DNA of 64,000 nucleotides. Origin: Bacilli bacterium. Lineage in GTDB: Bacteria > Bacillota_I > Bacilli_A > RF39 > UBA660. Shown here in pieces: positions 9,890-62,841 of this stretch. The stretch's first letter is position 1, and every line of letters starts with the position of its first letter. The DNA is taken from contig JBJEEB010000021.1 of NCBI GenBank assembly GCA_051872655.1, positions 66,535-130,534 of the forward strand, given 5' to 3'. The position numbers and the translations under genes were made by a program. The notes below the pieces were generated by a model, which was not told the origin of the DNA, did not search any database, and saw nothing but the letters and a program-made list of their open reading frames with translations.

Positions 9890-10453
9890 ATGAAAGGTAA
9901 ATTTATTGTTATATCTGGTCCTGGAGGAGTAGGAAAAGATACTATAGCTAAAGAATTAGTAAAAAGAACTAATATTATATACTCTGTGTCTATGACTACA
10001 AGAAAAATTAGAAGTAACGAAGTAAATGGTAAAGATTACTTCTTTGTAGATAAAGATACTTTTGAAGATAATATTAAAAATGATAATATTTTAGAGTATA
10101 CTTTCTTTAATGGCAATTATTATGGTACTCCAAGAGATTTTGTTTTTAATAATATTAATAAAGGTATTGATGTACTTGCAGTACTAGATATAAAAGGCGC
10201 TCTAAATATAGAAAAAATATATCCTTCCGCTATTAGTATATTTATTATGCCTCCAACATTCGAAGAGTTAGAAAGAAGAATTAGAGAAAGAGGTACTGAC
10301 TCTGAAGATGTTATTAGACAAAGATTAAAAATTGCTAAGGAAGAAATTAAAAATAGTAATAAATATGATTATGTAGTTATCAACAACACTGTGGATAAAT
10401 CAGTAGAGGAAATAACTAATATTATAAAGAAAGAAAAGAATATGGATATTTAG
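9890..10453 (+). CDS. gmk: guanylate kinase
   Basis: P-loop SGPGGVGKDT, plus YSVSMTTRKIRSNEVNGKDYFF. Confidence 0.9.
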   Translation: MKGKFIVISGPGGVGKDTIAKELVKRTNIIYSVSMTTRKIRSNEVNGKDYFFVDKDTFEDNIKNDNILEYTFFNGNYYGTPRDFVFNNINKGIDVLAVLDIKGALNIEKIYPSAISIFIMPPTFEELERRIRERGTDSEDVIRQRLKIAKEEIKNSNKYDYVVINNTVDKSVEEITNIIKKEKNMDI

Positions 10454-11890: not shown

Positions 11891-12025
11891 ATGGAAGAAA
11901 TTAAAAATAGTAATAAATATGATTATGTAGTTATCAACAACACTGTGGATAAATCAGTAGAAGAAATAATTAATATTATAAAGAAAGAAAAAAATGGTAG
12001 TTATTTTATTAATATTGAAAAATAA
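11891..12025 (+). pseudogene. relic duplicate of the gmk 3' end
   Basis: 11893-11997 is near-identical to 10339-10445, with 3 substitutions and 1 indel by eye. It encodes MEEIKNSNKYDYVVINNTVDKSVEEIINIIKKEKN..., compared with the Gmk C-terminus KEEIKNSNKYDYVVINNTVDKSVEEITNIIKKEKN. Confidence 0.85.
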
Positions 12026-12753: not shown

Positions 12754-12958
12754 AGTATTCTGATATTGAAATTGATAAAGAAAATATACTTGAATATAAA
12801 GAGATTTGTAGTGTGTCTCCTAGCAATCAAAAAAATAGAATTTAGATATGTTTATTCACTAGAAACTAATAAGTTAATTCTTCAAAGTAAAGAAGGAATA
12901 TATTGCAATTAATTTTTTCTTTATAAAAATCATTGAATATCAAAATAAATAACTCTTA

Positions 12959-13038
12959 CTTTAGAGACTTAATGGCTCTAAAGTATTTTTTTAAGACTAT
13001 AGGCTTAAAAAAACAGCGAGCAACTTTAGTGCGAGATG
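12959..13038 (+). repeat. three-hairpin module, copy 1
   Basis: h1 is ctttagag|acttaatgg|ctctaaag. h2 is ttttttaag|actatagg|cttaaaaaa. h3 is cagcgagca|actttag|tgcgagatg. Confidence 0.8.
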
Positions 13039-27907: not shown

Positions 27908-27914
27908 AAATATG

Positions 27915-27944
27915 AGTATCAACAGAAATTGTTGATACTTTTTT
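27915..27944 (+). terminator. intrinsic terminator after hpf
   Basis: 10-bp stem AGTATCAACA/TGTTGATACT, a 5-nt loop and a T-run. Both arms are TATCAACA-type DnaA-box variants. Confidence 0.75.
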
Positions 27945-27956
27945 ATTTATAATTGT

Positions 27957-28021
27957 TCATCCACAACTATTGTGGATATATTTATTTTATATTTATCTCT
28001 ATCAACATATATTGTTAATAA
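27957..28021. promoter_or_regulatory. DnaA-box-like cluster upstream of secA
   Basis: TCATCCACA (27957-27965) and the inverted TGTGGATAT (27971-27979) are each 1 mismatch from TTATCCACA. CTATCAACA (27999-28007) and TGTTAATAA (28013-28021) follow. Confidence 0.5.
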
Positions 28022-28032
28022 ATAAACTTTAA

Positions 28033-28115
28033 GTTTTAAAGACTATAGGCTTTAAAACTATTTTTGAAGACCATAGGCTTCAAAAATCACCAGAGTGACT
28101 ATAGGCACGAGGTGA
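28033..28115 (+). repeat. three-hairpin module, copy 2
   Basis: h1 is gttttaaag|actatagg|ctttaaaac. h2 is tttttgaag|accatagg|cttcaaaaa. h3 is tcacc-aga-gtg|actatagg|cac-ga-ggtga. Confidence 0.85.
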
Positions 28116-28199
28116 AACTATAATAAAATAAGGAAATATTTAATATTTACTAGTTTTTTTAATTAAAATATAGTAAAATATTATCTAGGAGATGATTTG

Positions 28200-42805: not shown

Positions 42806-42828
42806 CTATCAACAATACCTGTGGATAG
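42806..42828. promoter_or_regulatory. inverted pair of DnaA-box-like 9-mers upstream of polC
   Basis: CTATCAACA (42806-42814), a 5-nt spacer, then TGTGGATAG (42820-42828). Confidence 0.5.
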
Positions 42829-42831
42829 ATT

Positions 42832-42915
42832 AATTTAGAGACTATTCTTAGGCTCTAAATTACTATGAAAAGACCTTAGGCTTTTCATATAGTGAGAGAC
42901 TACAGGCTCGAACTA
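42832..42915 (+). repeat. three-hairpin module, copy 3
   Basis: h1 is aatttagag|actattcttagg|ctctaaatt. h2 is tatgaaaag|accttagg|cttttcata. h3 is tagt-ga-gag|actacagg|ctc-ga-acta. Confidence 0.85.
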
Positions 42916-43008
42916 AAATAATAATAAAACTTTGTAAAAAGAATGTAAATATGTTTAATTTACTTCTTTTTTTTAGTATAATAATAAATAGGAAGTTTAG
43001 GTGGTATT

Positions 43009-47631: not shown

Positions 47632-47671
47632 AAAATGCACAATCATTGTGCAAAATTATGTCAAAAAAAGT

Positions 47672-47708
47672 AAAAATGCACAATTTTTTAAAAATATTGT
47701 GCATTTTT
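47672..47708. terminator. bidirectional terminator between polC and the AraC-type gene
   Basis: 13-bp stem AAAAATGCACAAT/ATTGTGCATTTTT. A second small hairpin, TGCACA-atcat-TGTGCA, lies at 47636-47652. Confidence 0.7.
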
Positions 47709-50033: not shown

Positions 50034-50323
50034 AGTTACCTCCTTATCTAGTTAAATTATATCATTTAATATCTATTTTAACAATTGTTTTTGAATATTT
50101 GTAAATGATTTGAAATAAAAAATCTAAAATAATCAAATCAATATGATATAATAACTTATGAATAGATATTGTAATGATATGAATGCTAGAAAATATAATA
50201 AAGAAACTTTTACTAAAGGTATGTATGATATATTTGATAAAGACGAGGTTGATAATCACAAAATCATTGGTATAGGTTTTGAATTATTATAAACTATTTT
50301 AAAATATTTATTATATAAACTTT

Positions 50324-50407
50324 AATATGAAGACTATTTATAGGCTTCATATTATTCATTAAAGACCTTAGGCTTTAATGATAGTGAGAGACTATAGGCT
50401 CGAACTA
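50324..50407 (+). repeat. three-hairpin module, copy 4
   Basis: h1 is aatatgaag|actatttatagg|cttcatatt. h2 is cattaaag|accttagg|ctttaatg. h3 is tagt-ga-gag|actatagg|ctc-ga-acta. Confidence 0.85.
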
Positions 50408-50435
50408 ATAAATTATTTCCCGGGAAATAATTTAT
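50408..50435. repeat. 28-bp perfect palindrome AtaAATTATTTCCCGGGAAATAATTtaT (P2)
   Basis: Checked base by base: 50408-50421 is the reverse complement of 50422-50435. It abuts module copy 4. Confidence 0.85.
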
Positions 50436-50515
50436 AAATAGAAAATAATATATAAAGACTTTATTTTAAGTCTTTTTTTTAGTATAATTAGTATATAGAA
50501 AGACTTGGTGATATT

Positions 50516-59238: not shown

Positions 59239-59306
59239 TTCAAATCACCACTACTGAAATTATACTATAATATTGTTTTTTTGTAAATAATTTAGAAAAA
59301 ATAGTA

Positions 59307-59385
59307 AATTAATAAGACTTTAGGCTTAGTAATTATTTTTGAAGACCTTAGGCTTCAAAAACAGCGAGCAACATAGTGCGAGATG
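59307..59385 (+). repeat. three-hairpin module, copy 5
   Basis: h1 is aattaataag|actttagg|cttagtaatt. h2 is tttttgaag|accttagg|cttcaaaaa. h3 is cagcgagca|acatag|tgcgagatg. Confidence 0.85.
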
Positions 59386-59459
59386 AAATAAATAGAAAAG
59401 TATTTATTTTTTTTTATTTATTTGATATAATTTAATTAGAGTAGAAGGAAGGGCTAGTT

Positions 59460-61249: not shown

Positions 61250-61479
61250 TTATCAACATTATCCACAGTGTTGTGGATAAGTAAATTAACATCTGTTTAT
61301 AACAAAATTCTACAAAATTTGTTGATAACCCTTTAAAACCTTTATTTTATATGTTATTATATTGTTGAAAACTTGTTTATAACTTGTCAATTTACATGTT
61401 TATAAAATTTTTATACTAGACAAATTTTTATTTTGTTATATAATAAAGTTAATGAATTCTTTATTTAGGAGGTTATGGT
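61250..61479. promoter_or_regulatory. oriC part 1: DnaA-box cluster and AT-rich region upstream of dnaA
   Basis: TTATCAACA (61250), a perfect TTATCCACA (61259-61267), a perfect inverted TGTGGATAA (61272-61280), and TGTTGATAA (61320). TGTTTATAA occurs three times (61294, 61374, 61397). Confidence 0.8.
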
Positions 61480-62841
61480 ATGAATATAGAAATTATTTGG
61501 AATAATTTTCTTGAAAAAATTAAGGAACGTATATCTCCTTTATCTTATGATACTTGGTTTAAAGATACTAAATTATATAAGATTGAAAAAAATACCGCTA
61601 TTATAATTGTACCAATGATTTTACATAAGAAACATTTGGAAGAAAACTATTTAAGTGAAATAGAAGAAATTTTTAATTCAATTACTGGTACTAATTTTAA
61701 TTTTCAATTTAAGTTAGAAAATGAAATATCTCAAAATTTTTTAGAAGAAAAAATAATTGATGAAACAGAAAATATAGGTGTTCCTCATCAAAGTAGTAGT
61801 TCTGCTAATCTAAATAGTGAATATACTTTTGATAATTTTATTGTTGGAGATTCTAATAGATTTGCCTTTACTGCTGCGAGAGCTGTTGCTGAAAAACCTG
61901 GTAAAGCTTATAATCCTTTATTTTTATATGGAAAAAGTGGTCTAGGTAAAACTCACTTAATGCATGCTATTGGTAATTATATTTTAGAAAATTCTAATAA
62001 AAGAGTTCTCTATGTTTCTAGTGAACAATTTGTAAATGATTATATATATGCTGTTAGAAATAATGAAAAAAATAATTTTGATAGAATAGATTCATTTAAA
62101 AATAAATATAGAAATATTGATGTATTGATAATTGATGATATTCAATTTTTGGGTAGTGCTACTAAAGGACAAGAAGAATTTTTTCATACTTTTAATGAAT
62201 TACATGATTCTAATAAGCAGATAATAATAGCTTCTGATAGATCTGTAGATGATTTAAAAATGTTAGAAAATAGATTAATTACGAGATTTAATTGGGGTCT
62301 TACTGCTAATATAACCCCACCAGATTTCGATTTAAGGGTAGATATAATAAAAAAGAAGATATCTCATCAAGAGGCTGCGGAAGATATACCTATTGAAGTT
62401 ATTGAATATATAGCTAATATAAATGATTCTGATGTTAGACAGCTGGAAGGTGCAATTACAAGGGTATTTGCTTATGCTCTAATGATGAATAGAGGAATTG
62501 TTAATTTAGATATTGCAATAGAAGCTCTTAAAGATAAAGTATCAGAAAAAAGTGTTTATAAAAATGATGTTCATCGAATACAAAGAATTGTTTGTGAATA
62601 TTTTAAAATTGATATTGAAGATTTAAAAGGAAAAAAAAGGAGTAAGGATGTTAATTATCCTAGACAAATTGCCATTTATCTATGTAGAAAAATGACGAAT
62701 GAGTCTTTTCCAAAGATGGGAACTTATTTTGGTGGTAGAGATCATTCAACTATTATTAGTGCATATCAGAGAATTGAAAATGATTTGAAGACAAATCTAC
62801 AATTACAGGTGGTAATAAATGAATTAAAAGAAAAAATATAG
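61480..62841 (+). CDS. dnaA: chromosomal replication initiator DnaA
   Basis: FLYGKSGLGKTHL, LIIDDIQFL, and the C-terminal DNA-binding block PRQIAIYLCRKMT..S.PKMG..FGGRDHSTIISA. Confidence 0.97.
   Translation: MNIEIIWNNFLEKIKERISPLSYDTWFKDTKLYKIEKNTAIIIVPMILHKKHLEENYLSEIEEIFNSITGTNFNFQFKLENEISQNFLEEKIIDETENIGVPHQSSSSANLNSEYTFDNFIVGDSNRFAFTAARAVAEKPGKAYNPLFLYGKSGLGKTHLMHAIGNYILENSNKRVLYVSSEQFVNDYIYAVRNNEKNNFDRIDSFKNKYRNIDVLIIDDIQFLGSATKGQEEFFHTFNELHDSNKQIIIASDRSVDDLKMLENRLITRFNWGLTANITPPDFDLRVDIIKKKISHQEAAEDIPIEVIEYIANINDSDVRQLEGAITRVFAYALMMNRGIVNLDIAIEALKDKVSEKSVYKNDVHRIQRIVCEYFKIDIEDLKGKKRSKDVNYPRQIAIYLCRKMTNESFPKMGTYFGGRDHSTIISAYQRIENDLKTNLQLQVVINELKEKI

Follow-up and report, generated by a model that had tools for sequence, protein, structure and literature searches.

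The 64,000-nucleotide (nt) stretch of contig JBJEEB010000021.1 considered here (hereafter the window), which belongs to the Bacilli bacterium assembly GCA_051872655.1, has a G+C content of 25%, and carries five copies of an intergenic hairpin module, of which the focal copy lies upstream of secA. Based on Pfam, the genes downstream of the five modules are an HD-domain gene with valS, secA, polC, polA, and a gene encoding a DUF87/HerA-like ATPase, which is followed by dnaA at 61480. An earlier note on this DNA, drawn from the letters alone, had reported three hairpins at each of five intergenic loci on the + strand, with the start codons of these genes 75-109 nt downstream, and the loci, the distances, and the identities of the genes were all confirmed.

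The window has 13 matches to the motif AGAC-N(4-8)-GGCT, every one of them on the + strand; 12 belong to the five intergenic loci, where complementary arms flank them, and the 13th (position 2050) falls within an open reading frame (ORF) and has no stem. The double-box pattern is matched three times, in comparison with the 0.00 matches expected from 100 shuffles, and the R1 covariance model, which describes one hairpin and draws on 78 sequences, matched nothing but the five modules when run over the 64 kb with its filters off, and nothing at all on the - strand. Every module in the window folds as three abutting hairpins (h1, h2, and h3) with linkers of 0-1 nt, with folding z-scores of -2.9 to -6.3 in four of the five, and a weaker value (-1.4) for the module at 59306. 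The apex had been described as invariant in all 15 hairpins, and this is true of 12, which have the standard AGAC/GGCU box; the other three, all of them third hairpins, have variant boxes that retain the A.G mismatch. Hairpins are also shared mosaically among the modules; for example, the module at 59307 shares its h3 with that at 12959, and its h2 with that at 28033.

It is well supported that the module consists of two or three directly abutting hairpins, each formed by a stem of 7-8 base pairs (bp) of free sequence, a box of four positions (A-U, G-C, A.G, and C-G), and a loop that is NNUA in most cases. It is equally well supported that the hairpin at the 3' end is distinguished by a G+C-rich foot of 4 bp and by an internal loop of tandem G.A/A.G pairs. 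Among 132 non-identical hairpins with a 4-nt loop, stem positions 1-7 are paired in 93-99% of cases and position 8 in 62%, beyond which pairing falls to a background of 13-43%, and the A-U, U-A, G-C, and C-G pairs are all seen at every stem position. Each stem position has 3-5 pair types, and the eight nucleotides of the box are the only invariant ones. The loop is NNUA in most hairpins, and CUUA in 66 of the 132. In the first hairpins, the apex is often longer by 2-4 bp, which indicates that the conserved feature is the box rather than the loop.

In an alignment of 78 non-identical hairpins (A1), 94.6% of the stem cells are paired, in comparison with 62.2% in shuffled alignments, and the covariation score is 0.79, against 0.17 in the shuffles, a value attained by none of 500 shuffles. 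When the partner is shifted by 1-3 columns, pairing falls to 24-57%. Stem position 7, which was not used for selecting the hairpins, is paired in 77 of the 78, through four pair types, and seven perfect Watson-Crick pairs flank the box in 117 of its 210 unique occurrences. The proposal that the stems differ between copies while remaining complementary is thus borne out.

In the last hairpin of the module, a single pair beside the box is followed by two positions at which purines face each other (G.A in 37 of 65 cases, and A.G in 24), and then by the foot, which played no part in the selection of the hairpins and is paired in 77-95% of cases per position (92% overall). The covariation of this whole hairpin is 0.63, as against 0.14. 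The pairs of the box themselves covary, with the A.G mismatch retained throughout. The A-U pair is replaced by U-A in the h3 of the focal module (UGAC/GGCA) and in one locus of a relative (L089), the C-G pair by U-A (AGAU/AGCU) in three loci (L028, L036, and L095), and the G-C pair by A-U in the CAAC/GUG type of box. Compensatory double changes are also found in the second hairpin of the modules of polC orthologues.

Three lines of evidence bear on the strand that carries the structure. Mismatches in the stems are purine-purine in 58 cases and pyrimidine-pyrimidine in six, and the sense strand folds better than its complement, by 0.6-3.9 kcal/mol, in five modules with RNA parameters, three of which also do so with DNA parameters. 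The third line is the wobble counts. Read in the sense direction, the stems of the modules contain 15 G.U and nine A.C among 1,099 pairs, whereas 358 terminator-like hairpins from the same loci, taken as a control, have 102 G.U and 34 A.C. The reverse-strand reading (9 G.U : 15 A.C) is unlike that of the terminators (p = 5e-4), which rejects the reverse strand as the folded RNA, and the sense reading (15:9) fits the terminators, although it fits a 1:1 ratio equally well (p = 0.3), and is thus suggestive only. The selected structure lies, then, on the sense strand, with a constraint on palindromy at the DNA level also being possible. Given the covarying stems, and the A.G and G.A mismatches confined to one strand, the earlier view of a selected single-strand structure, rather than a duplex operator, stands.

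The module lies outside the mature leader: it either precedes the promoter or follows the stop codon or terminator of a gene. The focal module is preceded by the canonical terminator of hpf, and thus sits between a terminator and the next promoter (Table 1). The downstream genes carry a T-run and then a -10 element (RGTAYAAT) approximately 25-35 nt before the ATG, and the alignments of the polC and polA regions, presented below, place the module upstream of this promoter, as had been proposed. In three loci of relatives (L081, L087, and L098), a promoter (TTGAAA-17-TATGATAAAAT) and a T-box leader of full length (95-105 bits in Rfam) start only past the module. A reading of the module as a 5' leader or riboswitch was rejected, given that the -10 element lies downstream of it, that the T-box leader begins after it, and that half of the modules are antisense to both neighbors. 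These T-box leaders (L087 4248-4442, - strand; L081 667-860, + strand; L098 4681-4874, - strand) are found directly upstream of a gene assigned by NCBIfam to dUTP diphosphatase, an unusual gene for T-box control.

Table 1. Hairpin modules, promoters, and terminators of the window (positions are those of the window).
Feature	Position	Strand	Details
Module upstream of HD-domain gene and valS	12957..13038	+	
HD/valS module, h1	12957-12985	+	5-nt loop
HD/valS module, h2	12986-13013	+	
HD/valS module, h3	13014-13038	+	box variant CAAC/GUG
hpf canonical terminator	27914..27940	+	precedes the focal module
Focal module, upstream of secA	28032..28114	+	three hairpins
Focal module, h1	28032-28059	+	box 28040-28051
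Focal module, h2	28060-28087	+	box 28068-28079
Focal module, h3	28088-28114	+	variant box at 28096-28107; G.A/A.G internal loop; 1-nt bulge
secA promoter-like site, TTTACT-17-TATAGT	28146..28174	+	between module and start codon (TTG 28197, ATG 28200)
Module upstream of polC	42831..42915	+	
polC module, h1	42831-42862	+	2 bp added at apex
polC module, h2	42864-42889	+	
polC module, h3	42890-42915	+	GUGAG-AGAC...GGCU-CGAAC, tandem G.A
polC -10, T-run and AGTATAAT	42977..42982	+	invariant in 9 species; conserved block starts at module h1
Module upstream of polA	50323..50407	+	
polA module, h1	50323-50354	+	
polA module, h2	50356-50381	+	
polA module, h3	50382-50407	+	
Terminator-like hairpin AAAGACTT/AAGTCTTT and T8, then polA -10 TAGTATAAT	50454..50488	+	kept with the module in 6 species
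Module upstream of HerA-like (DUF87) gene	59307..59385	+	divergent spacer
HerA-like module, h1	59307-59334	+	
HerA-like module, h2	59336-59361	+	
HerA-like module, h3	59362-59385	+	box variant (CAAC/GUG)
HerA-like gene -10, GATATAAT	59426..59431	+	downstream of module

Position profiles upstream of h1 revealed no -10 element at a fixed distance, only scattered -10-like hexamers and an A-rich tract followed by TT, which rules out a sigma-70 promoter of the module's own at a fixed upstream distance. Conserved flanks are also present, with AUAUA following the module on its 3' side, and either AAUAUUGUU or UAAACUYUUA preceding it on its 5' side. The idea that these flanks close on each other as a helix was rejected, given that the folds produced inconsistent A/U pairings. 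In approximately 40% of cases, in both orientation classes, the stop codon of the neighboring gene is separated from the module by that gene's own terminator. In the spacer from the polA module to its gene, the two arms of the terminator-like hairpin (AAAGACTT at 50454-50461 and AAGTCTTT at 50468-50475) and a third copy of AAAGACTT beside the ribosome-binding site (50499-50506) are all invariant in six species; this octamer is similar to the 5' half of one of the hairpins of the module.

When one genome per species was scanned for the exact pattern, 98 stretches were recovered, approximately 82 of which derive from low-G+C metagenome-assembled genomes (MAGs) of the gut, the remainder being chance matches in simple repeats of G+C-rich genomes. 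The carriers are labelled uncultured Bacilli or Tenericutes, Clostridium sp. CAG:302, and Firmicutes CAG:321, and include a complete chromosome of 1.46 Mb (CP091726.1). A scan of metagenomes added at least 120 further stretches, for a sample of approximately 200 related loci. A viral collection returned a single chance match, in a giant-virus MAG, and a phage origin of the module was rejected on this basis. Where the loci carry PolC or PolA, these proteins are 77-97% identical to those of the window, so this subset represents close relatives; the best 120 matches in a search for homologues of PolA are all at least 87% identical, and are uninformative on phylogenetic breadth. The density of five modules per 64 kb in the window may be set beside approximately one extra module per 20 kb in the relatives, which were sampled as fragments of 8-15 kb. 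This latter value is taken from covariance-model matches in the first 596 kb of the loci, because the strict pattern under-counts the modules, given that the terminal hairpins fail its stem filter. The family is, on good support, a set of lineage-specific, dispersed, structured intergenic elements in the A+T-rich MAGs, of approximately 1.4 Mb, of gut Bacilli or "Tenericutes", and, of the three options raised in the earlier note, the lineage-specific dispersed repeat is the one favored by the data. Sporulation proteins (SpoVT, SpoVAE, CwlD, YutH, and a PdaB-like protein) are also encoded in these MAGs, among those that are the sources of L087, L066, L058, L012, and L090.

Only one of 158 modules lies inside an ORF, in DNA that is 89% coding. 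Once orthologous duplicates had been removed, 47 modules had complete neighbors, and these are found in co-directional spacers in the sense (16) and antisense (19) orientations, in divergent spacers (7), and in convergent spacers (5). The resulting 35/7/5 distribution of co-directional, divergent, and convergent cases is that expected from the spacers of at least 60 nt (35.4/6.7/4.9; p = 0.99). Both orientations are found within a single contig of 24 kb (UROI01000001.1, which comprises L074, L022, and L091), so the orientation is not tied to replication, which rules out a replication-polar element of the ssi, Chi, or KOPS-like type.

The modules that are antisense to genes lie on the C-rich strand, 10-80 nt past the stop codon of a convergent gene, and the genes that end at such modules include ruvB, lon, mutL, rnr, whiA, obg, alaS, mgtA, and spoVT. 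Sense modules precede polC, polA, rmuC, recU, parA, dut, rnjA, gpmI, and others, and further neighbors include apbE, ssuA-like genes, sporulation genes, and transporters. Genes of DNA metabolism account for approximately 10 of the 42 distinct neighbors, a modest enrichment at best. The earlier note had set its regulatory-RNA reading against the possibility that copies would be widely scattered, in both orientations, and with no bias in gene class. In the relatives, both orientations and a wide spread were indeed found, and the bias in gene class is weak rather than absent.

The alignments of the upstream regions of polC (nine species) and polA (six species) show a block of homology with its boundary exactly at h1, even in cases of unrelated upstream genes, and this block runs from there through the spacer, the -10 element, and the ribosome-binding site to the start codon. 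In four loci (L063, L095, L059, and L022), polC, the one gene observed in this arrangement, is bracketed by inward-pointing modules at both ends, and the module at its 3' end is seen with three different downstream contexts. Together, these observations link the module to the gene on its 3' side, whether at the start or at the end of that gene. The 3'-side gene is longer than the 5'-side gene in 35 of the 47 independent cases (binomial p = 0.001; Wilcoxon p = 2e-4), with medians of 331 and 188 amino acids, respectively, and 246 for all ORFs, and this polarity is present in all four classes of context.

Scans with Rfam returned no match in the window at the gathering score, and permissive scans of three modules gave only sub-threshold noise, in agreement with the earlier impression that the module belongs to no recognized family. 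A search of the literature for the 12-mer box, in either orientation, returned only unrelated primer matches. The readings as LexA, NrdR, CodY, or CsrA (GGA) sites were dropped, given that the sequence is unlike their consensus. A kink-turn was also rejected, because the 3-nt bulge is absent (1 nt in the h3 at 28088-28114), despite the presence of the tandem G.A/A.G pairs. In integrons, the attC sites have RYYYAAC/GTTRRRY cores at the foot of one long hairpin, and form cassette arrays beside the integrase. The module was rejected as an attC site, because its conserved part is near the apex, rather than at the foot, and the modules are dispersed singly, without arrays.

In its genomic behavior, the family is closest to the repetitive extragenic palindromic (REP) and BIME repeats and to the BOX repeats. 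The REP/BIME elements of the enterobacteria and the REPIN-RAYT systems are short, imperfect extragenic palindromes, found in many copies and in both orientations (PMC3116915, PMC3337134). Like the module, they are often clustered by stop codons or between cistrons, and a conserved irregularity of the stem gives the hairpin a polarity. The stems of the module, however, have no sequence in common, and its constant part is the four-position box with the A.G mismatch; the family is also found in divergent promoter spacers, has no GTAG foot, and occurs approximately once per 13-20 kb. The roles of the REP sequences include those of barriers or terminators at the 3' end of the mRNA, and of protein-binding sites. 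Whereas the hairpins of the module are in direct tandem, a REPIN is an inverted doublet of REP sequences (PMC3337134).

The BOX, RUP, and SPRITE repeats of Streptococcus pneumoniae are intergenic elements of modular build, in which the number of internal units varies and secondary structure is extensive; BOX elements transpose slowly, and may be co-transcribed with their neighbors (PMC3049150). Set beside BOX by description only, the module shares the narrow lineage, the intergenic position, and the modular build, with two or three units, and, just as one BOX element forms a composite with T-box leaders (PMC3049150), the module adjoins a T-box leader in some loci. The BOX repeats are defined by conserved sequences (boxA, boxB, and boxC), whereas the module is defined by a structure and a mismatch, and has a polarity toward the longer, conserved neighbor.

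Rho-independent terminators resemble the module in forming hairpins right after stop codons, and some modules are the sole structure in a convergent spacer or after a stop codon. The module differs from these terminators in the lack of an adjacent sense U tract, and in its conserved apex, its tandem G.A loops, and its presence upstream of divergent promoters. The Sal boxes bound by TTF-I, upstream and downstream of the rRNA genes, and the mTERF sites are polar terminator or insulator sites of eukaryotes and organelles. The analogy with the module is functional only: these sites are oriented, occur upstream of the promoter and downstream of the gene, form part of the unit that they border, and are found in tandem copies, but they are duplex DNA sites with characterized proteins, whereas in the module it is the formation of hairpins that is selected. 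It seems clear that the family is an undescribed one, defined by structure and one mismatch, and not by sequence.

The interpretation that is tentatively favored here, with a probability that falls short of even, is that the module is a dispersed, structured element of the REP/BOX kind and serves transcription units as a polar boundary, or insulator, by way of sense-strand hairpins to which a putative factor binds. This interpretation is suggested by the structure on the sense strand, the position outside the mRNA, the linkage and polarity to an adjacent long gene, and the presence at either end of the gene. The module sits in the spacer, outside the mature mRNA, pointing at an adjacent, usually long and conserved gene, with which it is inherited. 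Antisense noise increases with A+T content (PMC4783119), and spurious and read-through transcription would be expected in a genome with 75% A+T. Polymerases that approach the gene from the outside would, on their way, transcribe the module's sense strand, and the nascent hairpins, read at the A.G box by the putative factor, would either stop the incoming transcript or mark it for decay. The result would be a gene shielded at its 5' end against the occlusion of its promoter, and at its 3' end against collisions with antisense transcription. The more specific proposal, that the modules are oriented, factor-dependent stop or decay signals, in the form of tandem hairpins with the A.G box, that bracket long essential genes, as at the two ends of polC, and shield them from read-in and antisense transcription in an A+T-rich, reduced genome, is rather doubtful.

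If the polar boundary interpretation is correct, the modules would represent a dedicated insulator system for bacterial transcription units, which would bear on the means by which very A+T-rich, reduced genomes withstand pervasive transcription of the spurious and antisense kinds. On the conservative reading too, they are a family of dispersed repeats of a type that is missed by repeat finders based on sequence similarity. The A.G box would provide a defined ligand and, in turn, a handle on an RNA- or single-stranded DNA (ssDNA)-binding protein in an uncultured lineage of the human gut.

A number of observations weigh against the polar boundary. Transcription of the sense strand is assumed, and modules antisense to both of their neighbors would require spurious or divergent promoters. 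In the sense direction, an A-rich flank rather than a U tract follows the module, and only some 20% of the modules have a canonical sense-strand terminator within 150 nt downstream, so any termination would need a factor. In L065 (4209-4279; also in L008, L021, and L084), a two-hairpin module occupies the 64-nt gap between two ORFs of the same strand, the first of which has its stop codon within the 5' arm of the first hairpin, and the second of which starts 22 nt past the second hairpin; this is an apparent operon, in which termination would be counterproductive. The polarity in length is of moderate strength, and linkage to conserved core genes could have produced it incidentally. The distribution among the types of spacer in proportion to their availability, the polymorphism in presence and absence, with the window lacking the post-polC module of several relatives, and the near-identity of the copies at rmuC and polA all resemble the behavior of a mobile or gene-converting repeat. 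Over 93 nt, the rmuC module of L080 (2624-2668) matches that of polA (window 50331-50374 and L091 1332) with 97-98% identity, while the first hairpin at rmuC is a different one in other species, which suggests copying or gene conversion between modules. Transition-type mismatches are rarer in the module pairs (2.2%) than in the terminators (4.2%; p = 0.0016), and the near-perfect palindromy, together with the 15:9 ratio, would also fit a constraint at the DNA level, or the correction of palindromes by template switching.

Several of these same features would suit a REP/REPIN-like repeat, or one of the MITE type (miniature inverted-repeat transposable elements), which represents a genuine, if less likely, possibility. 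This repeat, either selfish or domesticated, would be mobilized as ssDNA, with the A.G box and the tandem G.A pairs read by an enzyme of the HUH/Y1 type, and any effects on the neighboring genes would be incidental. The recognition of structure, rather than sequence, is typical of enzymes that act on ssDNA, such as RAYT on REP sequences, TnpA on the ends of IS200/IS605, and IntI on attC. The occupation of all types of spacer in proportion to their availability, in both orientations, the polymorphism at the 3' end of polC, the near-identity of the rmuC and polA modules, and the mosaic sharing of hairpins would all be expected of a repeat of this kind, as would the stop codon of an ORF inside the element, the conserved flanks, and the near-perfect DNA palindromes.

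On the other hand, the stems are too diverse for recent copy-and-paste, with only eight invariant nucleotides, and the modules are retained at orthologous sites with compensatory changes. Few relics with a mutated box were seen, the polarity toward the longer neighbor would be unexpected from random insertion, the two orientations in the 24-kb contig speak against a lagging-strand bias, and the arrangement is a direct tandem rather than the inverted REP doublet (PMC3337134). No transposase was found, and no RAYT was identified, among the ORFs scanned, which were part of those in the 64-kb window and the fragments of 8-15 kb. With regard to the terminal inverted repeats and target-site duplication of a MITE, the comparison of the 3' ends of polC recovered no pair of empty and filled sites with identical flanks, and the flanks are conserved motifs, rather than duplications; these observations weigh neither for nor against a MITE.

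A further serious alternative, although an unlikely one, is that the module acts in the DNA itself, by the extrusion of hairpins or cruciforms, or as ssDNA, at the ends of long genes, where a protein that binds DNA or governs its topology would use it as a platform. In Escherichia coli, by analogy, BIMEs bind gyrase and IHF. Many modules are bounded by a terminator and a promoter, in spacers that are presumably not transcribed, with an orientation that is independent of the transcription of their neighbors, and the stems are more perfect than those of RNA terminators, with G.U about as frequent as A.C. The association with long genes, where transcription-driven supercoiling is, we infer, greatest, and the proximity of the DnaA-box-like pairs and the Noc-site-like palindrome described below, would also be consistent with this alternative. 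Arms of 11-12 bp with mismatches would, however, form poor cruciforms, and the purine-purine mismatches of one strand have no obvious use in duplex DNA; the orientation is not tied to the direction of replication, and there is no candidate protein.

It is quite improbable that the modules are independent small RNA genes, for example, a multi-hairpin sponge like CsrB or RsmZ, an option that had been raised at the outset. The strand-specific structure, the orientation independent of the neighbors, the repetition of identical, protein-sized units, and the good terminators after the polA and HerA modules would be in keeping with such genes. This option lacks, however, both a promoter at a fixed position and a consistent terminator, given that there is no -10 element at a fixed upstream distance, and that a sense terminator follows within 150 nt in so few cases; some modules begin 1-13 nt past a stop codon or occupy an intercistronic gap, and there is no GGA-type motif.

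Less likely still, the modules might be intrinsic terminators of the reverse strand, for the transcripts that leave the adjacent gene. The reverse complement of the antisense class starts 10-50 nt past the stops of ruvB, lon, obg, rnr, mgtA, and others, often with no other terminator there, and a U-rich tract follows on that strand. This tract begins only 3-5 nt past the stem, however, and the adjacent hairpin is A+U-rich. The wobble statistics are the opposite of those of real terminators (p = 5e-4), the conserved mismatches would become C.U mismatches and pyrimidine loops, and polC has a canonical terminator before its module.

The least likely alternative is the main idea of the earlier note, a cis-regulatory RNA or protein platform that co-regulates a replication and secretion regulon, always oriented with the downstream gene, which the wider sample does not support: the five modules of the window do precede polC, polA, secA, valS, and the herA-like gene, those of the relatives also precede rmuC, recU, dut, and parA, and the module is inherited with the downstream gene, but the modules occur in all types of spacer, antisense cases, at the 3' ends of genes, are as frequent as sense ones (19 and 16), the neighbors include gpmI, rnjA, apbE, ssuA-like genes, sporulation genes, and transporters, and the module lies upstream of the promoter.

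Other sites were observed in the DNA around the modules. The spacer after polC (window 47635-47705; L063 7575-7700) contains two operator-like inverted repeats, TGCACAAT...ATTGTGCA, which stand where relatives have the antisense module. The GC skew is positive on the + strand across the window, on both sides of dnaA, and dips only at the genes of the - strand (22-26 kb), which indicates that the skew follows the orientation of the genes, with no origin-type switch visible in the window. Between the polA module and the terminator-like hairpin lies a perfect palindrome of 26 bp, TAAATTATTTCCCGGGAAATAATTTA, at 50409-50434 (core 50415-50428), which is also found in L091 and L075, being present in three and absent from three of the six orthologous polA regions; its core, ATTTCCCGGGAAAT, equals the consensus of the Noc-binding site of Bacillus subtilis. 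Inverted pairs of DnaA-box-like 9-mers, TTATCAACA-N4-TGTGGATAA, were found at 10377-10398, 11931-11952, 27957-27979, 42807-42828, and 61259-61280. Two of these pairs are found a short way upstream of modules, namely those of secA and polC, and several relatives retain the pair at polC. Four DnaA-like boxes are clustered at 61250-61328, before dnaA, and the matches to the DnaA box with no more than one mismatch total 48, in comparison with the 26 expected.

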